Position numbers and translations under genes: made by a program. The notes beneath the pieces were generated by a model. That model had not been told where the DNA came from and ran no database searches. It saw only the letters and a program-made list of their open reading frames with translations. 55,311 nt of DNA from a bacterium (GTDB lineage Bacteria > UBP4 > UBA4092 > JAOAEQ01): positions 1 to 55,311 of the forward strand of contig JBHGBB010000001.1 of assembly GCA_041946755.1 (NCBI GenBank), written 5' to 3'. Positions 3,038 through 38,831 of the stretch are shown here, piece by piece; the stretch's first letter is position 1; each line of letters starts with the position of its first letter.

Positions 3038-3124
3038 TGGTGCCGAAGCGGGGATTTGAACCCCGACGAGGTTGCCCCCACTAGACCCTGAATCTAGCGC
3101 GTCTGCCAATTCCGCCACTTCGGC
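3038..3124 (-). tRNA. tRNA-Leu (anticodon CAG), class II with long variable arm, CCA encoded
   Basis: The reverse complement reads GCCGAAGTGGCGGAATTGGCAGACGCGCTAGATTCAGGGTCTAGTGGGGGCAACCTCGTCGGGGTTCAAATCCCCGCTTCGGCACCA. The 7-bp acceptor stem pairs. Anticodon stem CTAGA/TCTAG with loop TTCAGGG; T-arm CGGGG-TTCAAAT-CCCCG. Confidence 0.93.
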
Positions 3125-3824: not shown

Positions 3825-4176
3825 GGGGGCGAATTGGGTTCGACAGTAATCGAGGGTGTATAAGTGGCGTGTCGAGTTCTCTACCAGCTCGTTAAAACGG
3901 TGGAACAACATAGTCGCAAATCAAGAACTTGCATTAGCTGCCTAATTGAGTAGCTACGTCTTTCCGAGTTTACCTATCGACTTGGAAAAGGCGTCAAATA
4001 GATAGGAGTAGTAATTAATCTCTGCTCGAAGGATTAATTGCCAAATAATATTCGAGCTAGCATCAATCGAACCCGCCTGAGGTGCAGATTGATGTGAACT
4101 CAAATTTCAGGATACACACGTAGACATTTAGCATACTGGTTATTGGACGCGGGTTCAATTCCCGCCGCCTCCACCA
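3825..4176 (+). ncRNA. ssrA: transfer-messenger RNA (tmRNA, ssrA); tag reading frame 3916-3945 encodes ANQELALAA*
   Basis: 5' GGGGGCG pairs with 3' CGCCTCC-ACCA, including the G3:U pair. The T-arm is GCGGGTTCAATTCCCGC. The resume codon GCA is followed by AAT CAA GAA CTT GCA TTA GCT GCC TAA. Confidence 0.93.
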
Positions 4177-7608: not shown

Positions 7609-8802
7609 ATGGATACTCAACAAATAAAAGAATTGGCGGCAAAATATATTATGAACACCTACGGCATCAGAGATATCGCTCTGGTCCGAGGACAAGGAGT
7701 AAAGGTTTGGGATGCGGAAGGACAAGAATACCTTGATTTCGTTGGCGGAATTGCGGTCAATCTGCTTGGACATTGTCATCCAACGGTAGTAGAAGCTATT
7801 AATCAGCAGGCACAAACCTTGATTCATGTTTCTAATCTCTATTGTATCGAACCGCAGGTAAAACTGGCGGAATTACTCTGCCGGATTTCGTTCGCCGAAA
7901 AATGTTTTTTCTGTAATAGCGGTGCGGAAGCCAATGAAGCGGCAATCAAACTTGCCCGGAAATATGCGAAATTAAATATCGCTCCGGATAAATATGAGAT
8001 TATAACTATGCTCAATTCGTTTCATGGTCGTACCTTAGCAGCAATTACTGCTACCGGGCAGCCGAAGTACCAGCATGGATTTGAACCTTTAGTTCCGGGA
8101 TTTGTTTATGCGACTTTTAACGATTTAGCGAGCGTTAAAGAGAAAATCAATCAACACACCTGTGCGATTATGGTTGAACCGATTCAAGGAGAAAGCGGGG
8201 TCCATCCATCGACTCCGGAATTTCTATCCGGTCTCCGCCAATTATGCACTGAGCATAACTTACTATTAATTTATGACGAAGTCCAATGCGGATTGGGTAG
8301 AGTCGGAAAAATGTTTGGGTATGAACTTTATGGCATTCCGCCGGATATTATGACGTTATCAAAAGGATTAGGAGGCGGAGTCCCGATTGGTGCGACCCTG
8401 GCTACTGATAAAATTGCAGCCGCATTCTCACCGGGAAACCATGCATCAACGTTTGGCGGCAATCCATTAGCCAGCGCTGCAGCGATCGCTGCATTACAAA
8501 CGATTCTGGATCAGAAACTGGCCGAGAATGCTACTAAACAAGGAGCCTATTTCTATCAACAACTACTGGACTTAAAAAAGAAATATGATTTTATTACCGA
8601 TGTACGGGGTAAAGGGCTACTCCTCGGGCTCCAGTTAGATCGGGAAGGAAAACCGTTTGTCGTTAAGTGTGCTGAAAAAGGATTATTGATTAACTGCGCG
8701 GCAGAAAAAGTATTGCGGTTTCTCCCGCCATTAATAATCAATCAACAACATATCGATGAAGCGATATCGATTCTAGACCAAGTCTTTGCGGAGGTTAAGT
8801 AA
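7609..8802 (+). CDS. argD: acetylornithine aminotransferase
   Basis: Class III aminotransferase motifs: FCNSGAEANEAAIKLARKY, LIYDEVQCGLGRVGKMFGYE, SKGLGGG. ATG 7609 preferred over TTG 7600. Confidence 0.88.
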   Translation: MDTQQIKELAAKYIMNTYGIRDIALVRGQGVKVWDAEGQEYLDFVGGIAVNLLGHCHPTVVEAINQQAQTLIHVSNLYCIEPQVKLAELLCRISFAEKCFFCNSGAEANEAAIKLARKYAKLNIAPDKYEIITMLNSFHGRTLAAITATGQPKYQHGFEPLVPGFVYATFNDLASVKEKINQHTCAIMVEPIQGESGVHPSTPEFLSGLRQLCTEHNLLLIYDEVQCGLGRVGKMFGYELYGIPPDIMTLSKGLGGGVPIGATLATDKIAAAFSPGNHASTFGGNPLASAAAIAALQTILDQKLAENATKQGAYFYQQLLDLKKKYDFITDVRGKGLLLGLQLDREGKPFVVKCAEKGLLINCAAEKVLRFLPPLIINQQHIDEAISILDQVFAEVK

Positions 8803-18946: not shown

Positions 18947-21220
18947 ATGAACGTGCTACCGACCGGCCCTTTAAAGAACAAACGGGATATTCGCACCTAT
19001 TTTAAAGATATGCAGCGGTGGAAGTTCGATGTCGCCTATGCAGGATACTATGCCTTCCCCTGGAAAGATACCGTTGGTAAATTCAAACCGTTCTATCAGG
19101 GTTTCGCAAAACAAGCGCATCAGCTGAAAATGAATGCGGTGATGCAGATTCAATCGACCGTAGCTTTCCTCGATGATGTCCCGTTAACCGAAGCGCAGTT
19201 GTATACCGATAACACCCCCCATCTATATACCCATTTCGCTGAATGGGGTAAAAAGAATTTCTTCGGCTCTTATGCTTCAGAAATCTGGCTGGAATACCTG
19301 ATGAAGTTAACCAAACTGTTTGTCCAGGAGTATAAGTATGACTGGATTGTGTTCGAAGAGCCGATGTATATTGTCGATATTCCGGGGACCAAAGACCGGT
19401 TCTATGAAGTATTCAAACAGCGATATCCGAACATCCCTTATCCTACCAAACATCTGGAAACAGTGGGCTATGTAAAAGTCCAGGAGCTGAAACAGGAATT
19501 GCAGCTGCGGTTCTATGACCGGCTGACCGCTTATGCGAAGAAAATCGGGGCGAAGAAAGTCGGGATCATGCCCTGGTTCTTTTCGCCTACTAACGAGAAT
19601 ACCCCGGCAGAAACCTTCCATACCGCTTGCAGTAACGGCCGGATGCTGATGCTGCCGAACCTGGATTTTGTAGTCGTCCGCATGCAGCCGGATAATATCT
19701 TAGCGGATGCGATGCTGAATACTTCCGGGGAAGCCTTACCCCGGCTGTATTATCTGGAGACCTTAGCGCATACGGTAGGCAAACCGGTGGTAGTAGTCGA
19801 TAATCCGACCAACGAGCATCCGACTCCCCAATATCCGAATGAACGGTTGATTCCTTTAGATTACTTCACCCGATGCACCTTAGCGTTAACCGCAGCCGCT
19901 CCGAATGGCATCACCCGGCATTGGTATGGCAAGAATTATAAACAGGAAGAACCGCAGATGGGGTTATATACCGCGGTGAACGAGTTTCTCCCTCGGTTAG
20001 GGTATCCGGAATCAGCGTTTGCGTTTGTTTATAGCCATCGGGCGAATTGGCATACCCTACCCTTGAAACCATTTGAGGTATGGAAGAACTATTGGCATCT
20101 CATGCGGGCGCTATTATACGATTATAAGTTCCCGACTCATACCTTTTATGCGGAATCGATAGGAGAATGTTTAGCCCGGAATCCGCAGGTTAAGGTATTA
20201 ATATTCAATGAATATTTCCCGTTAACCAAAGAAGAAACCGCGTTAGTCGATAAATGGTGGACTGAGAAACCGAACCGGATGCTGATTTATTTCGGGTCCG
20301 GTAATGGCTATTCTGCTGATAGCGATCGGAAAGGATGGAATCGGGATATATTAGATTCGCCTTGTATCTTAAAGCTGTTTGGCATCGAATCGCCGACTGA
20401 GACCAAGACCGAATTAGGGATATCTAGGTTCATCGAGTCGGAGATAACCGATTTTGGGATAGATTTAACCTTTACCGGCACCAATTATACCCAGGATGCG
20501 TTCTGGGGGAAAGAACTGAATATCGCTACCCCTCAGGTAGCGAAAGTTAAAACCAAAGAGCATGAATCGATAGAAACCTTTTATACCGGGAACGGCAACC
20601 TGCCTCTAGTCACTATGCGAACCAATAAACTGGGGAATCAAGCCCTGTTTATCGGATTAAGCTTATTATGGGAACGAGGGTTACCGCCGTTACGGGAAGT
20701 TATCCGGTATGCGAATAACCAGCTAAACCTGCATCGGTGGGTCACCAATCCGACCCAAGGGATATTATGGACCCGGAATAAATGGAATTATCTGGTGATG
20801 TCGAATCTGGATATCGACCCCGGCATGGCAACGATTCAACTGCCGAACCAAGGGAAACTATGGGAGGTTCGGGAGCATCGGTTTATGGTAGAAGAGACGC
20901 AGCGGAGCGAAAATATCCAGAAGACCCATATCGATATCCCGGGATATAGTTTCCGGATATTCCGGTTTGTTGATGCTGACGACCAGCTAATCGATATTTC
21001 CGGGATGATAACGATACAAGACCTGAGTTATACTGCTAAACAGCTTAAACTAAAACTGATGGCGAAAGACCCGATTTCGATAACTTTAAAATCTATGCCG
21101 GTTAAGGTTTGGGTGAATAAGAAACCTACCCGGCCGAAGGTAGAGAAAAAAGAACCGGTAGTTGAATTACACATTAAATGCCCGGTCGGTGAGAACGAGT
21201 TGGAATTGAAGTGGAAGTAG
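18947..21220 (+). CDS. large hypothetical protein, possible TIM-barrel glycoside hydrolase with GH42-like domain order
   Basis: 757 aa with no signal peptide. It contains WIVFEEPMY and a later KVLIFNEYFPLTKEE...MLIYFGSGNGY segment reminiscent of a GH42 catalytic domain plus trimerisation (flavodoxin-like) domain. This is weak, by-eye evidence. Confidence 0.3.
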   Translation: MNVLPTGPLKNKRDIRTYFKDMQRWKFDVAYAGYYAFPWKDTVGKFKPFYQGFAKQAHQLKMNAVMQIQSTVAFLDDVPLTEAQLYTDNTPHLYTHFAEWGKKNFFGSYASEIWLEYLMKLTKLFVQEYKYDWIVFEEPMYIVDIPGTKDRFYEVFKQRYPNIPYPTKHLETVGYVKVQELKQELQLRFYDRLTAYAKKIGAKKVGIMPWFFSPTNENTPAETFHTACSNGRMLMLPNLDFVVVRMQPDNILADAMLNTSGEALPRLYYLETLAHTVGKPVVVVDNPTNEHPTPQYPNERLIPLDYFTRCTLALTAAAPNGITRHWYGKNYKQEEPQMGLYTAVNEFLPRLGYPESAFAFVYSHRANWHTLPLKPFEVWKNYWHLMRALLYDYKFPTHTFYAESIGECLARNPQVKVLIFNEYFPLTKEETALVDKWWTEKPNRMLIYFGSGNGYSADSDRKGWNRDILDSPCILKLFGIESPTETKTELGISRFIESEITDFGIDLTFTGTNYTQDAFWGKELNIATPQVAKVKTKEHESIETFYTGNGNLPLVTMRTNKLGNQALFIGLSLLWERGLPPLREVIRYANNQLNLHRWVTNPTQGILWTRNKWNYLVMSNLDIDPGMATIQLPNQGKLWEVREHRFMVEETQRSENIQKTHIDIPGYSFRIFRFVDADDQLIDISGMITIQDLSYTAKQLKLKLMAKDPISITLKSMPVKVWVNKKPTRPKVEKKEPVVELHIKCPVGENELELKWK

Positions 21221-21274
21221 GGGCGAGTCACTGACTCGCCCGCTACATCGGGCGACCCCATGGGTCGCCCCTAC
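21217..21274. repeat. REP doublet (REPIN-like): GTAG-GGGCGAGTCA-C-TGACTCGCCC ... GGGCGACCC-CAT-GGGTCGCCC-CTAC
   Basis: Two GC-rich palindromes are bracketed by GTAG / CTAC. The outer GTAGGGGCGA and TCGCCCCTAC are reverse complements. The first GTAG overlaps the TAG stop at 21218-21220. A second copy lies at 38534-38595. Confidence 0.85.
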
Positions 21275-21281
21275 CATAATA

Positions 21282-21419
21282 AAAGCAAGTTTGCTATTAG
21301 CAAACTTGCTTTATAGACACCTCTTTTAAATAAGAAAAAGCAGATTTTCTAATAGAAAATCTGCTTTTTTATTGAGTGCTAAATCCTAGCTATATTCCTG
21401 AATTGGCTAGAGTTAAGAT
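21282..21419. repeat. 138-bp two-hairpin terminator module, copy A
   Basis: AAAGCAAGTTTGC-TATTA-GCAAACTTGCTTT, then AAAAAGCAGATTTTC-TAATA-GAAAATCTGCTTTTTT (21335-21370, bidirectional terminator), then ATTGAGTGCTAAATCCT..CCTGAATTGGCTAGAGTTAAGAT. It is repeated at 22932-23069. Confidence 0.9.
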
Positions 21420-21443
21420 TCGTTATTTTGGGCAACCGGAAAT

Positions 21444-22289
21444 TTATTTCTTAATTTGTTTTCTTTGAGTTATCGGAGGCAGATAATTTTCTCCGGTTAC
21501 TACGCTCTTACCGGTTTTCTGTTCCAGTTCAATTCGCGCTTTTTTAGCGATAGTGCCGCCTTTTTTCCCCGCGTCGGTATTTTCTGACATACCGGTAGCC
21601 TCGACACTTTCAGCAATCTGGCGGGTAGACAATTCCGCTAACGCAGTGAAAATTAATTCCGCTTCACTCATATGGTCTCGAAGATTCTGGGTTTTGAGTC
21701 CTTTCATATCCTTATGCTGTTTAACCGAAACCCCACTCCATTCCTGATGAATGATATTGGTTAGAATCGCATATTCCTCTTCCCCTTGAATCGCATGCTC
21801 TTTCCAATAATCGGTAAGTTTATTCCGGGTTTCCTGACCCATCATCCGCTGCTGAATCCATTTATCGCTTCTGCCATGCTGTTGCCAATATAATCGAGCG
21901 CGGTCGAGAGACCGGGCGGGATCGCTCATATCCTGGATGCGTTCATATCCTACTTTGGCTAACCAGAGTTTGATCGGTTCAGCTTTCGGACTGGGTACTG
22001 ATTGGATGAGACGTAATAGCGTTTCGGGATTGGCAGCATCAGTTACCCGCATTTTCCCATCTTCAGCCATCATTTTCAACTGGTGACAATTTGTCACCGT
22101 TTGACTGCCTTCCTTTTTAAGTCGTTCTTTTAACTTATTCCAATATTTCCGCGCAGTTTGATAATCCGGCTGCTGAATCAAAGCGGCGATTATATCCACT
22201 ACTGAAAAATACCACTGCTCTGATTTCTCGTCATATACTCGACGAATTTTATAACCTTCAAAGACTGCTAATGCTCGGTTATCATTCAT
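21444..22289 (-). CDS. Bro-N domain protein with DinD-like C-terminal region (prophage antirepressor-like)
   Basis: The N-terminus FEGYKIRRVYDEKSEQWYFSVVDIIAAL fits Bro-N. The C-terminal LRDHMSEAELIFTALAELSTRQIA resembles E. coli DinD (ILDHMGSTELAANLFRATQTEE). Confidence 0.65.
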   Translation of the reverse strand: MNDNRALAVFEGYKIRRVYDEKSEQWYFSVVDIIAALIQQPDYQTARKYWNKLKERLKKEGSQTVTNCHQLKMMAEDGKMRVTDAANPETLLRLIQSVPSPKAEPIKLWLAKVGYERIQDMSDPARSLDRARLYWQQHGRSDKWIQQRMMGQETRNKLTDYWKEHAIQGEEEYAILTNIIHQEWSGVSVKQHKDMKGLKTQNLRDHMSEAELIFTALAELSTRQIAESVEATGMSENTDAGKKGGTIAKKARIELEQKTGKSVVTGENYLPPITQRKQIKK

Positions 22290-22319
22290 ATTCGCCTCGA
22301 TTAAGAAGTAGTAGTTTCA

Positions 22320-22378
22320 GTCGATTACAATTTGTAACCGACTCAATTCACTAATACATTATACTATAAATTATTATA
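22320..22378 (-). promoter_or_regulatory. duplicated TAGTATAAT -10 boxes plus a palindromic operator-like site upstream of the Bro-N gene
   Basis: On the minus strand: TAGTATAAT twice (TATAAT at 22378-22373 and 22363-22358), followed by GTCGGTTACAA-A-TTGTAATCGAC (22342-20), 31 nt upstream of the ATG. Confidence 0.35.
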
Positions 22379-22404
22379 CTATGGAATAGCTGAATATAAG
22401 ATTT

Positions 22405-22439
22405 CCACGAAAGCACGAAAGATAAAAGACACGAAAGCC
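22405..22439. repeat. CACGAAA-array element, left arm
   Basis: CCACGAAAGCACGAAAGATAAAAGACACGAAAGCC. The inverse arm is at 22835-22867, on the other side of ORF 22472-22786. Confidence 0.8.
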
Positions 22440-22471
22440 AAGAATATCCAAAACCATTGAATTATATTTGG

Positions 22472-22786
22472 TTATTTAAGTCTTGCCCCGCAATGATTGC
22501 AATAGCTATTAATCCATGTTTGACATATTACAGGTATATTCTCTACATATAAGGTTACATAGAGACTTTTAGAACAATTCGGGCATTTTAACTTAAATAG
22601 ACCAAATCCTATATATAAATTAAACACTGCATACCCAAGCATAAAATAATCTAAGAGATTGTTAAATAGGTAGGAAACTACTAGGAAGTAGGGGATACCC
22701 CCTATTAAAACAGCAATGGTTTTTAGCCAATGTTTCCGAATCTTGGGACGCAACTGATTAAATTGGTCTCGGCAATCTTTTTCCAT
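22472..22786 (-). CDS. small membrane protein with C-terminal zinc ribbon (hypothetical)
   Basis: 104 aa with two hydrophobic helices (TIAVLIGGIPYFLVVSYLF, FMLGYAVFNLYIGFGLF), then CPNC-x29-CNHC. Confidence 0.5.
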   Translation of the reverse strand: MEKDCRDQFNQLRPKIRKHWLKTIAVLIGGIPYFLVVSYLFNNLLDYFMLGYAVFNLYIGFGLFKLKCPNCSKSLYVTLYVENIPVICQTWINSYCNHCGARLK

Positions 22787-22834
22787 TTTAGGTATACTTT
22801 ACCATAAAACCATGAATGAATTAAATGATGGTTC

Positions 22835-22867
22835 TTTTTGTGGTTTACATATTTCGTGGTTTCGTCT
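22835..22867. repeat. CACGAAA-array element, right (inverse) arm
   Basis: CTTTTGTGGTTTACATATTTCGTGGTTTCGTC. Confidence 0.75.
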
Positions 22868-22886
22868 GCCAGACCATTATGGTGTC

Positions 22887-22906
22887 ATTCCCGCGAAGGC
22901 GGGAAT
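22887..22906. repeat. short GC-rich palindrome ATTCCCGC-GAAG-GCGGGAAT
   Basis: Perfect 8-bp arms and a 4-nt loop. Confidence 0.8.
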
Positions 22907-22931
22907 CCAGTTTTCGAGTCTTGAGCCGATC

Positions 22932-23069
22932 AAAGCAAGTTTGCTATTAGCAAACTTGATTTATAGACACCTCTTTTAAACCAGAAAAAGCAAGTTCGCC
23001 TTAGACGAACTTGCTTTTTTATTGAGTGCTAAATCCTACATATATCCCTGAATTGGCTAAAGTTAAGAT
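22932..23069. repeat. 138-bp two-hairpin terminator module, copy B
   Basis: Same length as copy A. By manual alignment it has about 7 substitutions outside the second hairpin. The inner stem of that hairpin is replaced by AAAAAGCAAGTTCG-CCTTAGA-CGAACTTGCTTTTT (22985-23020), which is still perfectly paired. Confidence 0.9.
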
Positions 23070-23154
23070 ATATTATTGATGATTTTCCGACTAGCGCCTT
23101 TATTTCAGTTGGCAATTATTGTCTACAGTTCAACCTCTTTTTCGGGATTTATTA

Positions 23155-23227
23155 GTGACATTTTGTCACCGGTGCAAGTCCGGCTTCGGGAGTATGTTCT
23201 AAAATGGAACATGCTAAATTTTTCTTT
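23155..23227 (+). ncRNA. candidate small structured RNA or tRNA 3'-half-like relic (three hairpins plus U-tract)
   Basis: GTGACA-TTT-TGTCAC; CCGG-TGCAAGT-CCGG followed by CTTCGGG (compare the tRNA-Leu 3' end GGGG-TTCAAAT-CCCC-G-CTTCGGC); AGTATGTTC-TAAAATG-GAACATGCT followed by AAATTTTTCTTT. Confidence 0.3.
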
Positions 23228-23363
23228 AATTAATAAGAATTATAAAAAAATACAAACTGGTTTTGATTTTTTAATATTAAGAAGAGAATCTCTTTACGGA
23301 TAATACTAGAGTTGTATATAACTTGAATTAATGAAGATATATCAACCAATATTCGCCCGCATT

Positions 23364-25070
23364 TTAGGCAATTCCTGATTTCAGGGCATTCTTCAATGTA
23401 TCAACAAATACTTGATTGCGATAGAGACGTTTTGGTTTGAAGTTACCCTTTGACTGTTCAATATTAATAATAGTCCAAATACGATCAAGTTCAGCATTTG
23501 TGATAGTCTTATGGCTAATTCCAATAAGGACATCTCGGAAATAATCAGGTGTTCCTGAGACAATAGAGACCCATATAAAAGCAAAAAGACATCGATAATC
23601 AGTAGCAAATTTTTTTGATTGACTCCATGCAATACGCTTTGTGACTAAAGAATGCTCCATATGCTTAACAATATTGAGAACCGCTAGATAGATTCGGATG
23701 TCCATATGTGTGTCAAATAGTAGGTTATATTCTTTGTCGATACGCATGAACTTTGTTTTCATTTTAGCTGCTCGTGCTGGATTTTTTAACACAAGTGCCA
23801 TTATGCAACTAGCAAGATAAGAAGGAGAAATTATTCGATGCGTCGGGCGTCCTTGATTCTTGTGATAATTCTTACGTCTGTCGTAAAACCAATTGTCTCT
23901 AATTAAAATCTCTTCGATATCTCTCTGAATCTTTTCTGTTGCTCTAAGTGATGATAGTTCGACGCCAGTTTGATAATTGGTCGCCTTAATAATTCGATCT
24001 CGGACTTCGGGGTTTTGTGTAACAATTATCTTCACTAGCACTGCGCGATCATCATTATCATTAGGATGACTAATAAAGCGCCTATAGATAGTTTCCGTTG
24101 TCTGAAGACCATTAACAATCTGAATATTCTCAAGACTGATCTCTTTACCAGCAACGTTAGCCGCTGTTGCAATAATCGTAACACCGTTGTTCAACCACCA
24201 GAAATCACATTGATCAATTCGATTGGCATTAGCTAACGTCTGTTCGATATCTTCGTTTACCGGAACAGTACCAAGGTAGTCACGAACATTGGATTCAAAT
24301 AGATATGTGCGAAGAGCACCTTGGTCATCAGTGATAAACTTATGATAGTCAGGTAGAGTTGTCAGAATAATATAGTTGGTCTTGGCACGTGAAACATAGT
24401 TTTCAATAAAGGTTAACCGTAGTGTTCGGACACGCTGCTTGCGTGATAAATTTAGTAGTTCAGTAGCCCCAATAAACTGAAAATGGGTAACGCAATCACT
24501 AAAGAGTTCGTGCACTTGCTCTTCGATCAATCTAGCACGACCAATCACATTATCCGCAATTGAATTAGCATCACCTCTCGATACGTAAATAAATGTGAAA
24601 TGTAACGAGGGCTGACGAGCGGATAGTTCTCTGTATGCATCACAAAATAGCTGTCTTTGTTCAATCAAATCGTCATTGTATTCAGATGAAAACGAATCTG
24701 GCTTGCGTGAGAGATCAAATAATTCTGGTAGTGAAGCAAAGAGATTATTGAGTGGTACTTGCCGAAATGTAGTCTCATGTTTGCAAGTTATTATGATTAC
24801 TTCAACACTTGGGTGTTTGCGAACCATATCTTCTGTTGGCACTTCGGAGAGTGCTAGCCCGTCGAGGAAAACATAAAAACCATCTATCCCGCCATCGTCG
24901 CTTCCGTCTACCCAACCCTGTTCAATCTCGTCGTAGGACACGTCATGGTCTTTAAGCAGATTTTCGAAAGCGAACAGTTCAAATACCTCACTGATATTGG
25001 TAAGTTCTGGATATTCCGGTTTCTTTTTTTCTAAGAGTGCATCAAGAAGAATCAAATCATTCTTTGCCAT
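23364..25070 (-). CDS. AIPR family abortive-infection (phage resistance) protein
   Basis: 568 aa. The N-terminal GWVDGSDDGGIDGFYVF and the central FWWLNNGVTIIA...IVNGLQTT are hallmark AIPR (PF10592-like) motifs, recognised by eye. Confidence 0.75.
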   Translation of the reverse strand: MAKNDLILLDALLEKKKPEYPELTNISEVFELFAFENLLKDHDVSYDEIEQGWVDGSDDGGIDGFYVFLDGLALSEVPTEDMVRKHPSVEVIIITCKHETTFRQVPLNNLFASLPELFDLSRKPDSFSSEYNDDLIEQRQLFCDAYRELSARQPSLHFTFIYVSRGDANSIADNVIGRARLIEEQVHELFSDCVTHFQFIGATELLNLSRKQRVRTLRLTFIENYVSRAKTNYIILTTLPDYHKFITDDQGALRTYLFESNVRDYLGTVPVNEDIEQTLANANRIDQCDFWWLNNGVTIIATAANVAGKEISLENIQIVNGLQTTETIYRRFISHPNDNDDRAVLVKIIVTQNPEVRDRIIKATNYQTGVELSSLRATEKIQRDIEEILIRDNWFYDRRKNYHKNQGRPTHRIISPSYLASCIMALVLKNPARAAKMKTKFMRIDKEYNLLFDTHMDIRIYLAVLNIVKHMEHSLVTKRIAWSQSKKFATDYRCLFAFIWVSIVSGTPDYFRDVLIGISHKTITNAELDRIWTIINIEQSKGNFKPKRLYRNQVFVDTLKNALKSGIA

Positions 25071-25222
25071 GTTTAATTTCCACCTATTAAGCGTTTCGTT
25101 TTTTAGCGTTAGATAGAGAAACTTATCATCTGCTGGCGTTCTATACCGTCTTCTTTTCGTGTAATAAACTTATTAGGAGACTCCCCTACTTTTTCATGGA
25201 TGACATCATCATCAATTTCAAG

Positions 25223-25252
25223 ATTATAGTATGGATATAAAAGATATTGCAA
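25223..25252 (-). promoter_or_regulatory. sigma-70-like promoter for the AIPR gene
   Basis: On the minus strand: TTGCAA (25252-25247), 18-nt spacer, TATAAT (25228-25223). This would give a leader of about 150 nt. Confidence 0.35.
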
Positions 25253-25428
25253 CTTATTTTTTTTGAATTTAATAAAATAGAAAAATAGAATTATACTTCA
25301 TTAAGAAATATTAATTTACCTTTAATCTCAATTAGTGTCTAATTTTCATAAGGTTTTATAGACTCGATTGGGTATGCAAGTTGTCTGATAATGGTTCGGT
25401 AAAAAATCAAATTTAGAGCGGAGAGGAA

Positions 25429-25453
25429 CCAGAGCGGGTCAGACCCGCTCTGG
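25429..25453. repeat. GC-rich hairpin CCAGAGCGGG-TCAGA-CCCGCTCTGG
   Basis: Perfect 10-bp stem followed by TATTTATT, 37 nt upstream of the ATG at 25490. Confidence 0.8.
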
Positions 25454-25489
25454 TATTTATTCGCCATCAAATTTATTTAAGGAGCGATT

Positions 25490-26035
25490 ATGAAAAGGGA
25501 GAAAACCACTGAGTTACCGTATGTAACGTTAAGTATCCCGGTATCGAAGTTTATTGAACTAATCCAGAACCGGTTTCAGGATAATCTCAAGCAGTTGAAT
25601 CTTATTCCGGGACAAGAGCAACAGTTAGAATCAGCGTTAGAAAAAGCGGTTAATAGTATTCTGGTAGATAAGTTTGCGGTTGATGGAACTGTCGAATTAG
25701 TTCAGTTCCCGTTAGGGTCGATGGCCGCGAGTGGGAAATTCTCTGATCCGGATGCCGGTAATATCGTTTATGTTCCGGGTACCGGTTCCCATAAACCCTA
25801 TATCCGGAAATGGGTTATTCCCCCGAATATTAATTCCGATAAACAACAAGAACATCGAACCCGGTTTAAACTGGTTACCCAACAATGGAACCTAGAAACC
25901 CCTGAAATTAAATCGGAATGGGAATTAGCGGCGGAAAAAGTACCGGTATATTCCGGGCAGACGCTGTATATTAAGAGATGGTTTGAGGTGGGGAAAGAAT
26001 CTGGTAATTATCCGGGAATCGGATTTCAACCATAG
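25490..26035 (+). CDS. hypothetical protein (181 aa, no recognisable domain)
   Basis: AAGGAG RBS 7 nt upstream of the ATG; soluble, no TM segments; divergent from the AIPR gene. Confidence 0.5.
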   Translation: MKREKTTELPYVTLSIPVSKFIELIQNRFQDNLKQLNLIPGQEQQLESALEKAVNSILVDKFAVDGTVELVQFPLGSMAASGKFSDPDAGNIVYVPGTGSHKPYIRKWVIPPNINSDKQQEHRTRFKLVTQQWNLETPEIKSEWELAAEKVPVYSGQTLYIKRWFEVGKESGNYPGIGFQP

Positions 26036-26109: not shown

Positions 26110-26142
26110 AAAAAGCAGATTATCTATTAGATAATCTGCTTT
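26110..26142. terminator. hairpin terminator (U-tract on the minus strand)
   Basis: AAAAAGCAGATTATC-TATTA-GATAATCTGCTTT. It is related to the second hairpin of module A. Confidence 0.55.
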
Positions 26143-27704: not shown

Positions 27705-27799
27705 CCACGAAACCACGAAATTTTTAAAGCACGAAATAATAGAACTAAAACTAATTTAGGTTTTTTTTCGTGTTTTCTAACTTTCGTGTTTTCGTGGTA
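27705..27799. repeat. CACGAAA-array palindromic element (complete)
   Basis: CCACGAAACCACGAAA..AAAGCACGAAA - loop - TTTTCGTGTTTTCTAACTTTCGTGTTTTCGTGGTA. It ends 2 nt from the stop codon at 27802-27804. Confidence 0.9.
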
Positions 27800-28275: not shown

Positions 28276-28369
28276 TACCACGAAAGCACGAAAGGTAGAA
28301 AGCACTAAATAATCGACATACTACTCATTTAATTTTATTTCGTGGGTTCCAGTTTTCGTGTCTTCGTAG
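28276..28369. repeat. CACGAAA-array palindromic element (complete)
   Basis: TACCACGAAAGCACGAAAGGTAGAAAGCAC - loop - TTTCGTGGGTTCCAGTTTTCGTGTCTTCGTAG. It abuts the stop codon at 28370-28372. Confidence 0.9.
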
Positions 28370-28839: not shown

Positions 28840-28880
28840 GGTTTCTTTTCGTGTTTTCTATCTTTCGTGTTTTCGTGGTA
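28840..28880. repeat. CACGAAA-array element, half copy overlapping a CDS 3' end
   Basis: GGTTTCTTTTCGTGTTTTCTATCTTTCGTGTTTTCGTGGTA. The last residues (..LPRKHER*) of the 28858-29634 methyltransferase are encoded by it. Confidence 0.85.
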
Positions 28881-29634
28881 AAGCATACGGTTTAATGCAT
28901 CTAATGGTCGCCATATCAGAATCCGGTTTAACTTTCTTGTCGGATAACCAATCGAAAGCTTTAACACTTTTAAAACCCGCCTGATGTAGGAACTCGGCGA
29001 TTTCATCTATAGTATAAAACCGGAGTTTACCCAGGTCCTCTTCCGCGCCGACCAGAGCACCATTAACATATTTCTCGATAATCAATAGCCGGGATTGGAT
29101 ATGGGTCTCCGAATCATATTCGGTGAGATACCTTTTGGTATAAATCAGGGTATCATTGCATTGTTTCCAATCGCCTTGCCATCCGGTATCCGGTTTCCTG
29201 ATTTTGTTACTTAGATGGAGGATATCGAACATAAACGCAGCGCCGGGAAGTAAATGATGGTACACATTAGTAAACGTCTGCACCATTTCGTCATTCGTAA
29301 TGACAAAACTGAGCGTTCCATCCGGAATAAAAACGAAACTTAATTTATAGTGCAGTTTGAAGGTTTGTATCGATTGCTTGGTTAGCGCGGGTTTAAGATG
29401 CAATTTCCGGCATTTTGTTCGGCATCTATTGAGCATATCTTCCGAGGTATCGATGCCAATAATTTTTATTTTCTTTCTTAATAACGGAATTAATATTCTA
29501 CCGGTTCCGCAACCCATCTCAAGTATAGTTCCTTGAAGATGCTGCATCTGGTTAAGCCAAAATGATAATTCTCTTTCTGTAATATCCGGATATGCTAAAT
29601 CATAATATTCTGATAAGATTTTACCGTATCGCAT
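28858..29634 (-). CDS. class I SAM-dependent methyltransferase
   Basis: Motif I ILEMGCGTGRI; 258 aa. Confidence 0.75.
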   Translation of the reverse strand: MRYGKILSEYYDLAYPDITERELSFWLNQMQHLQGTILEMGCGTGRILIPLLRKKIKIIGIDTSEDMLNRCRTKCRKLHLKPALTKQSIQTFKLHYKLSFVFIPDGTLSFVITNDEMVQTFTNVYHHLLPGAAFMFDILHLSNKIRKPDTGWQGDWKQCNDTLIYTKRYLTEYDSETHIQSRLLIIEKYVNGALVGAEEDLGKLRFYTIDEIAEFLHQAGFKSVKAFDWLSDKKVKPDSDMATIRCIKPYALPRKHER

Positions 29635-38533: not shown

Positions 38534-38595
38534 GTAGGGGCGAGTCAGTGACTCGACCGTAGAATATATCGGGCGACCCAATGGGTCGCCCCTAC
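38534..38595. repeat. REP doublet (REPIN-like), second copy
   Basis: GTAGGGGCGAGTCAGTGACTCGACC..ATCGGGCGACCCAATGGGTCGCCCCTAC. Confidence 0.85.
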
Positions 38596-38831
38596 CACCA
38601 TAATAAAATCAATAGTTTATACTAACGTTGACCTATTATCAAATTGAGAATAGGTCAAGATATAAGATTAAGGGTTCAAAAAATTGCGCCCCTACTCCAT
38701 AGCAAACTGCAAAATTTGCAGTTTGCTTAACTATAATATATATAATAGTTTATACCAACGTTGTATTATACGCCAATGGCGTAAAATACAAAATGGAAGA
38801 GGTAAATACGCAAAATTCGCTTAAATGGCGG

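Follow-up and report, generated by a model that had tools for sequence, protein, structure and literature searches.

An AbiU-family gene and a PDC-S13 gene as probable independent tenants of a small variable defence islet in an uncultured bacterium

AbiU (AbiUi/AbiU1) of Lactococcus lactis is the founding protein of the AIPR family (PF10592). It is treated as a single-component system that delays phage transcription and whose model resembles the FokI nuclease (review PMC13064643), and AbiU1/AIPR has been placed in a ParB-superfamily nuclease group (PMC3632139). An earlier interpretation of the locus described here, made from the letters of the DNA (the sequence-only reading), held that AIPR proteins have no defined partners. 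This needs a qualification: the catalogue entry for AbiU is that of a single-gene system (PMC13064643), and another AIPR branch, MzaE, does have defined partners.

We analysed a stretch of 55,311 nucleotides from an uncultured bacterium, referred to as the window, in which a compact group of three minus-strand genes with phage-conflict signatures and a divergent fourth gene had been proposed. All four open reading frames lie where they had been placed, with the gene for a 181-aa protein on the opposite strand to the other three, and the phage-conflict flavour was borne out, as defence models are matched by two of them (AbiU by one, the candidate family PDC-S13 by the other) and the slot varies among relatives. 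The segment from ∼21.2 to 25.4 kb is likely a small variable "defence islet" that holds two independent single-gene elements and one small gene, and not one system. The AIPR (AbiU) gene and the Bro-N gene are unrelated solo elements that happen to have come together where the genome is variable, and both belong to kinds already catalogued as single-gene, of which these are further members. Because the 104-aa and 181-aa proteins encoded alongside are not partners of AIPR or Bro-N, we read the locus as an ordinary small defence islet with no new multi-gene system. As for the hydrolase genes said to border it, the GDSL lipase was confirmed whereas the 757-aa "hydrolase" gave no match in a Pfam search.

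The gene at positions 23364 to 25070 (minus strand) encodes an AbiU-family AIPR protein of 568 aa. The motifs by which it had been recognized, DGSDDGGIDGF (residues 55 to 65), WWLNNGVTIIA (291 to 301), and NGLQTT (320 to 325), are all present, and Pfam PF10592 matches residues 258 to 508 significantly (E = 2.6e-39, 136.2 bits, cut-off 25). The PADLOC AbiU model is matched over its full length (4.5e-165, residues 4 to 564 aligned with model positions 1 to 535 of 537) and the PHROG match is to PHROG 1841, "Abi alpha-like". The AF2 model of the protein has a pLDDT of 90, and its fold matches in BFVD are a phage AIPR protein and GmrSD N-terminal, DndB-like, and ParB-like proteins.

Residue conservation was assessed over 109 AIPR sequences. 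In the N-terminal half, position 31 (Glu in our protein) is Glu or Asp in all 109 sequences, D59 and D63 are invariant, and (T/S)95-x-K/R97 is also conserved. The NNG...NGLQTTE signature of the C-terminal half is near-invariant, comprising N294-G296 and N320-E326 with exceptions at T324 (Thr in 107 sequences and Ser in 2) and E326 (Gln in one), while K309, K347, and R398 are invariant. We read the N-terminal half as nuclease-like; the C-terminal half is the AIPR (ParB/DUF262-like) domain. Pfam searches with the isolated N-terminal, middle, and C-terminal pieces gave no match, nor did an AIPR profile search against PDB sequences or, at E < 0.001, a Foldseek comparison of the model with the PDB, and phmmer with the N-terminal 150 aa against the PDB returned noise only. 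As the PDB and Pfam searches gave no support, we infer a Mrr/FokI-like nuclease from the motifs and the review, and the N-terminal domain is referred to here as a putative nuclease on the strength of motif reading and literature analogy. With a model of high confidence available, the invariant residues (D59 and D63, N294-G296, N320-E326 apart from T324 and E326, K309, K347, and R398) are targets for mutagenesis.

The 568-aa protein most likely acts alone. Its C-terminal domain would bind nucleotides as a ParB/DUF262-like module similar to those of GmrSD and DndB, and may either sense infection or be switched by it. The N-terminal domain, with its E...D..D...(T/S)xK pattern, would then cut nucleic acid as a PD-(D/E)xK-type nuclease, and the outcome would be a delay in phage gene expression like that reported for lactococcal AbiU.

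A different view, put forward in the sequence-only reading, is that the AIPR, 104-aa, and Bro-N proteins, and possibly the 181-aa protein, cooperate as one undescribed multi-component defence system. Co-occurrence had been set beforehand as the refuting test for this idea, and at a tblastn threshold of E ≤ 0.01 none of 81 AIPR loci carries a match to the 104-, 281-, or 181-aa proteins. These loci contain AIPR homologues with 37 to 86% identity, most between 37 and 50%, on contigs many of which are short (1 kb or more of downstream sequence is available for 51 loci, and of upstream sequence for 58). A scan of genome contigs with the single AIPR protein as the query yielded one locus, and an alignment would reach further. 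In no case is a neighbour family shared by more than 3 of the 81 loci, which is a single-gene organization, and no small ORF combining transmembrane segments with two CxxC motifs lies within 2 kb of any of them or near 20 Bro-N loci. The reciprocal test gave the same picture, with AIPR, the 104-aa protein, and the 181-aa gene found at 0 of 20 PDC-S13 loci. The closest relatives agree with this: at a locus with 84% nucleotide identity (L002), homology ends at the AIPR stop codon, and at another, where AIPR shares 64% amino acid identity (L001), the neighbours are unrelated.

The closeness of the genes (3.6 kb), the common strand of three of them, and a terminator module common to transcription units would all suit a joint system, and partners are indeed needed in certain AIPR branches, as exemplified by MzaE, to which the 568-aa protein has a weak NCBIfam match. 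That match, however, scores 31.8 bits where the cut-off is 1050, the genes are separated by long intergenic gaps that contain terminators, and elsewhere members of the 104-aa and 181-aa families are found with neither AIPR nor Bro-N. With co-occurrence missing, the multi-component proposal is largely refuted and we find it scarcely credible; a partnership that exists in this narrow lineage only is possible. Since no conserved neighbour was seen among the 81 loci, we regard AIPR as a solo gene, and this supports studying the present AIPR subfamily as a solo system.

The 104-aa protein (22472 to 22786, minus strand) does have the architecture first described for it, two hydrophobic transmembrane helices and then a C-terminal CPNC...CNHC ribbon, with Pfam zinc-ribbon matches that are sub-threshold only. 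A search of 5.8 billion proteins retrieved just three non-identical homologues, with 56 to 60% identity, and the co-occurrence statistics for this family are therefore thin. The homologues at L084 and L085 are surrounded by unrelated genes. The GC content of the gene is 0.337, against a mean of 0.423 for genes of the window. The protein represents a rare lineage-restricted family and is conserved as a partner of neither AIPR nor Bro-N; the gene would be a lineage-specific one that happens to sit between the other two.

The remaining minus-strand gene (21444 to 22289) encodes a protein of 281 aa whose N-terminal Bro-N domain, already noticed from the letters, is significant in Pfam (7.2e-10). 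PADLOC assigns the protein to PDC-S13 (PDLC04920) over its full length (1e-120, model positions 1 to 275 of 286), and it shares 42 to 52% identity with homologues from Bacteroidota and Arcobacter and from gut viral contigs; a search against PDB sequences gave no match. The likely ligand of its Bro-N domain is DNA or a phage protein. The contexts of PDC-S13 homologues are varied and include a type III restriction operon and a type I-B cas operon, where the gene is flanked by cas4 and cas1; further homologues adjoin HEPN/MNT genes. It is because of such restriction, cas, and HEPN/MNT surroundings that PADLOC lists PDC-S13. A 367-aa neighbour of the Bro-N homologue at L088 was guessed from its motifs to be SIR2-like, a guess that was dropped when Pfam gave no support.

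Calling the Bro-N gene a defence gene is provisional, PDC-S13 being a PADLOC candidate family for which a literature search found no published test. Bro-N is a typical regulatory domain of phages and viruses, and the 281-aa protein could instead be a prophage or mobile-element leftover, an antirepressor or regulator, which would make AIPR the only defensive gene of the islet. Its match to PHROG 15286 (6e-87), the homologues on IMG/VR viral contigs annotated "phage antirepressor", and the candidate status of the family speak for such an origin, but no other phage genes flank it within the window, and a leftover sits poorly with homologues embedded in restriction and cas operons or beside HEPN/MNT genes. 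We consider this explanation unlikely and favor one in which the Bro-N gene would be a mobile solo gene, seen beside many different defence genes.

Each transcription unit of the group had been said to end in the same 138-bp terminator module. A shared module does exist, although its length is ∼149 nt, in two copies on the minus strand that are 87% identical, module A at 21279 to 21427 and module B at 22929 to 23077, each made up of two AT-rich palindromic hairpins in tandem, with T-runs, and a further ∼60 nt. Module A begins 17 nt past the Bro-N stop codon, with a terminator-like site at 21369 to 21335 (minus strand). Between the AIPR stop codon and module B there are 287 nt, and the positions at which its second hairpin differs from that of module A preserve the palindrome. 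The 181-aa unit has a single related palindromic hairpin downstream (26110 to 26142), likely a bidirectional terminator, and not the whole module. The hairpin pattern has 4 matches in the window against 0 expected, the family being confined to this region of the 55 kb, and a scan of all fetched loci found no copies. We interpret the two modules as probable tandem intrinsic terminators that were locally duplicated. An integron-cassette or attC nature was considered for them and rejected, as there is no integrase and the ends are not conserved in an attC-like manner.

The two modules are direct repeats with a spacing of 1650 nt that bracket exactly the 104-aa and Bro-N genes, and for this reason both genes could have arrived, or could move, as one unit. 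They would then form a cassette (21428 to 22928) inserted or exchanged through recombination of the hairpin modules beside a pre-existing AIPR gene, a model with which the restriction of the hairpin family to this region, the low GC of the 104-aa gene, and the variability of the slot between relatives all agree. However, no recombinase or integrase lies nearby, simple local duplication can also produce duplicated terminators, and the one further locus with this arrangement, L086, comes from the same organism and is 100% identical. Elsewhere, 104-aa homologues are not beside Bro-N genes, nor Bro-N genes beside 104-aa homologues. Within the 182 nt that separate the two genes there is also a −10-like TATAAT, which suggests that they are transcribed separately. 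We find the cassette very doubtful. A further reading, in our view highly improbable, would make the slot by the conserved 181-aa gene a hotspot of cassette exchange, with the double-hairpin modules serving for recombination or as boundaries, and the 104-aa and PDC-S13 genes an unrecognised two-gene mobile defence cassette, perhaps cooperating with AbiU in this lineage only.

At the left side of the region, a pair of GTAG-headed GC-rich palindromes in inverted orientation (21217 to 21274) extends over the end of the 757-aa gene, including its stop codon. It is REP-like, having the GTAG-headed imperfect palindromes, inverted pairing, multiple copies, and intergenic location of RAYT-associated REP elements. 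The doublet had been taken to mark the left edge of an insertion; it is present, but a second copy at 38534 to 38595 (two copies in 55 kb) makes it a dispersed repeat and not a specific edge marker.

The 181-aa protein (25490 to 26035, plus strand) had been called an orphan with no recognisable domain. Pfam, NCBIfam, PHROG, and PADLOC indeed gave no domain, but the protein is no orphan, as 11 close homologues (51 to 90% identity, 45 invariant columns) were found together with ∼110 remote relatives in a profile search, some of them with DUF6266. Its AF2 model is poor (pLDDT 66) and has no significant PDB fold match by Foldseek; weak Foldseek hits of an anti-sigma-factor-like kind (TM about 0.23) were rejected as meaningless. 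The gene is conserved without AIPR at four loci (L082, L083, L110, and L111), in L082 among housekeeping genes and in L083 with retained synteny to a LarA-like neighbour. A long hairpin (25417 to 25465, plus strand), located 25 to 30 nt upstream of the start codon, is conserved in the window and at the same four loci. Covariation supports it, with compensatory double changes at 11 of its 23 predicted pairs, and an Rfam search returned no family at gathering score. This hairpin belongs to the 181-aa gene and marks where the variable region ends on the right. Gene, hairpin, and LarA-like neighbour would constitute a conserved backbone flanking the variable slot, outside the defence genes. The content of the slot differs between relatives, one of which has a different defence candidate, PDC-M14A-like, in this place.

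The locus has little significance beyond annotation. From an uncultured lineage it contributes one divergent member of the AbiU family and one of PDC-S13, as independent tenants of one variable slot.

As to known systems, the C-terminus called DinD-like in the sequence-only reading corresponds to a weak collinear similarity of the C-terminal half of the Bro-N protein to Escherichia coli DinD (residues 144 to 248, 25% identity over 108 aa, pairwise BLASTP E = 0.003), and an NCBIfam search with the 281-aa protein gave no family-model match, DinD included. The AIPR core is shared with MzaE of the five-gene MZA system (NCBIfam NF041935, E = 5.6e-8), but given 31.8 bits against an equivalog cut-off of 1050 and no MzaA-D-like genes alongside (PADLOC gave no matches for the neighbours), identification as MzaE was rejected. 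The AIPR core fold also resembles the DUF262/ParB-like modules of the type IV restriction systems GmrSD/BrxU and of DndB (BFVD E values of 5.6e-4 to 1e-2), and in our reading NGLQTT resembles DGQQR. The literature places AIPR in the same superfamily (PMC3632139). Unlike GmrSD/BrxU, the 568-aa protein has no DUF1524/HNH C-terminal nuclease, its putative nuclease being N-terminal, and it has no Pfam DUF262 match and no dnd or brx genes nearby. From AbiU itself it differs in its divergent C-terminal ∼100 residues, in its uncultured bacterial host, and in having no AbiUii-like HEPN gene downstream. In PDC-S13, the full-length HMM match and N-terminal Bro-N come with no notable difference. The likeness to AbiU extends to the single-gene organization catalogued by PADLOC, the full-length HMM match without a conserved partner, and the length class, with 568 aa here and 589 aa for the AIPR protein of L. 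cremoris plasmid pC42, a gene that may or may not be the original pND001 AbiUi and whose product shares 34% identity with ours over residues 4 to 461, a span that takes in the N-terminal and AIPR domains (E = 6e-72).

All four open reading frames that the sequence-only reading had joined into one multi-component defence module lie exactly where it placed them. The 568-aa protein (23364-25070, minus strand) contains the AIPR-type motifs quoted for it, and the PF10592 AIPR domain scores 136 bits against a Pfam cut-off of 25. It also matches the AbiU model of PADLOC-DB over the full length (E=4.5e-165, positions 1-535 of 537 in the model) and shares 34% identity over residues 4-461 with a 589-aa AIPR protein from Lactococcus cremoris plasmid pC42. 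By every test applied to its sequence and organisation, the gene is a member of the AbiU family; the public MAG record of the contig already names it "AIPR family protein". Membership of the MZA system was rejected, as the MzaE model in NCBIfam gave only 31.8 bits against a cut-off of 1050.

The sequence-only reading had named a lack of these neighbours beside AIPR homologues as grounds for refuting the module, and that lack was observed. We fetched 81 loci with AIPR homologues of 37 to 86% identity, with at least 1 kb of downstream sequence in 51 and at least 1 kb upstream in 58. Relatives of the 104-aa, 281-aa and 181-aa proteins were found in none of the 81 by tblastn (E<=0.01), and the other neighbours from the window were equally absent from these loci at that threshold, except for one marginal PNPOx-like match (E=0.003). 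When every ORF lying within 3 kb was clustered de novo, no neighbour family turned up in more than three loci, and a feature scan found no small ORF with transmembrane helices and two CxxC motifs within 2 kb of the homologues. In the locus of the closest relative, L002 (84% nucleotide identity), homology stops at the AIPR stop codon, and in an Acidobacteria MAG (64% amino acid identity) the AIPR homologue is surrounded by housekeeping genes and a gene for a DUF4258 protein.

Reciprocal tests agree. The 281-aa protein (21444-22289, minus strand) has the Bro-N N-terminus that had been read from its sequence (Pfam, 7e-10), while the DinD-like C-terminus attributed to it finds weak support (25% identity over 108 aa, pairwise E=0.003). 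An end-to-end match to the single-gene candidate PDC-S13 of PADLOC-DB (E=1e-120) places it, at the level of sequence, in that candidate family. Among 20 loci with PDC-S13 homologues, drawn from viral contigs, plasmids and "phage" records, none contained AIPR, relatives of the 104-aa or 181-aa proteins, or a small transmembrane zinc-ribbon ORF. The contexts are very diverse: one homologue lies within a type III restriction operon, one adjoins a DUF86/nucleotidyltransferase pair, and another (L105 6007-6903, 49% identity) sits between cas4 and cas1b of a type I-B CRISPR-cas operon on Arcobacter cloacae plasmid pACLO (NZ_CP053834.1). The 104-aa protein (22472-22786, minus strand, GC 0.337) does show two hydrophobic helices followed by CPNC...CNHC, with sub-threshold zinc-ribbon matches only in Pfam and no match in PADLOC-DB. 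A search of 5.8 billion proteins returned just three non-identical relatives, and the two with DNA available are surrounded by unrelated genes; the sole other 104-aa/Bro-N arrangement (L086) is from the same organism at 100% identity. The region is thus an ordinary small defence islet (~21.2-25.4 kb) whose members are of known or catalogued kinds, and not a multi-gene system.

The repeats of the islet were only partly as described. A terminator module recurs, but it is ~149 nt long rather than 138, and the third transcription unit, that of the 181-aa gene, ends in one hairpin of this type (26110-26142) instead of a whole module. The two copies (21279-21427 and 22929-23077) are 87% identical. 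In both, two perfect AT-rich palindromes precede T-runs on the minus strand, and the differences in the second hairpin preserve its palindrome. The copies begin 17 nt past the Bro-N stop codon and 287 nt past the AIPR stop codon, respectively. The hairpin pattern has four occurrences in the window, against 0 expected, all of them in this region, and none in the fetched loci outside the contig. As direct copies bracket the 104-aa and Bro-N genes, there is a small chance that these form a two-gene cassette or a site of hairpin-mediated exchange. The GTAG-headed palindrome pair at 21217-21274, taken as the left edge of an insertion, is real, but a near-identical pair recurs at 38534-38595, which makes it a dispersed REP-like repeat rather than an insertion scar. 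Further AT-rich hairpins follow the second copy (38700-38730).

A palindrome of the GTGACAnnTTGTCAC / TTACAATTTGTAA type is present three times, within the Bro-N gene (22074-22099), just upstream of its start codon (22315-22340) and downstream of AIPR (23146-23171); these may be operator-like sites. The window has 25 exact copies of the heptamer CACGAAA against ~7 expected. Intergenic arrays of two or three such heptamers at fixed spacing often face each other as inverted pairs (22406-22436, 27706-27736, 27766-27796 on the minus strand, 28279-28293, and 28338-28360 and 28847-28877, both minus), with degenerate copies near 22825, 30268 and 37301. The 104-aa ORF is flanked by one inverted pair. 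No such array is present in the related loci examined; the arrays may be a repeat specific to this genome or sites for a regulator.

The 181-aa protein (25490-26035, plus strand) indeed has no recognisable domain in Pfam, NCBIfam, PHROGs or PADLOC. It is no orphan: 11 close homologues share 51-90% identity with 45 invariant columns, and a profile search adds ~110 remote ones, a few small ones with DUF6266. The central segment of the family (~residues 51-104) aligns with 11-13 repeats within giant proteins of 1439 and 2316 aa (relatives noted: P0143, P0149, P0185 and P0166). A long hairpin at 25417-25465 (plus strand), 25-30 nt ahead of the start codon, is shared by all five loci (the window, L083 ~1514-1562, L082 ~7928-7976, L110 ~1464-1511 and L111 ~1937-1985), with compensatory double changes in 11 of 23 predicted pairs. 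It has no Rfam match and, lacking a T-run, was rejected as a terminator; it may act in the 5' UTR of the family as a regulatory element or a site bound by protein.

In L083 the 181-aa gene keeps its LarA-like neighbour (74% identity). Given this synteny and the conserved leader, the 181-aa gene, its hairpin and the LarA-like gene are the backbone, and the variable slot lies to the left of them, with defence-type genes in two of five relatives. The gene upstream in L083 (84-1091, minus strand) encodes a 335-aa double zinc-ribbon protein matching a further PADLOC candidate, PDC-M14A (8e-19), in the slot taken here by AIPR, which suggests a defence hotspot beside the 181-aa gene. This protein also carries an RHILSH (Rx4H, HEPN-like) motif. 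Upstream lie a DDE transposase in L111 and a protein without family assignment in L110, and in L082 the homologue stands amid housekeeping genes. The GC content of the islet (0.377) agrees modestly with a variable slot, as the long ORFs beyond the variable 21.2-30.9 kb stretch average 0.423 (sd 0.028). Genes for tRNA-Leu(CAG) (3038-3124) and tmRNA (3825-4176, tag ANQELALAA), classic integration targets, are 17 kb from the islet. A SAM-methyltransferase-domain protein (28858-29634, minus strand) partially matches mad2 of the MADS system in PADLOC (4.6e-12), probably through generic methyltransferase similarity.

AF2 modelled the AIPR protein with confidence (pLDDT 90, pTM 0.87), and the model matched nothing in PDB at E<0.001. 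In a viral structure library it matched a phage AIPR protein (2e-12) and, more weakly, GmrSD N-terminal (DUF262), DndB-like and ParB-like proteins (5.6e-4 to 1e-2), in agreement with the published assignment of AbiU1/AIPR to the ParB superfamily (PMC3632139). None of 109 homologues departs from D59 or D63, all have E or D at position 31, and 108 have K or R at position 97; these residues lie in an E...D..D...(T/S)xK pattern within the beta-rich N-terminal domain. The core shows no variation at NNG (294-296) or NGLQ-T (320-323, T325), T or S at position 324, and E at position 326 in 108 of 109. The closest relative (L002 527-1735, 86% amino acid identity) is without the N-terminal ~180 residues, the putative nuclease domain; flanked by unrelated DNA, it may be a decayed copy.

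On our best reading, the AIPR protein would be a solo Abi protein of nuclease type, whose PD-(D/E)xK-like nuclease, at the N-terminus, would be gated by a ParB/DUF262-like module. For this putative nuclease, Pfam and PDB sequence searches with the N-terminal piece gave no match. Lactococcal AbiU is handled as a single-component system in a 2026 review, which reports that its model resembles the FokI nuclease and that the protein delays phage transcription (PMC13064643).
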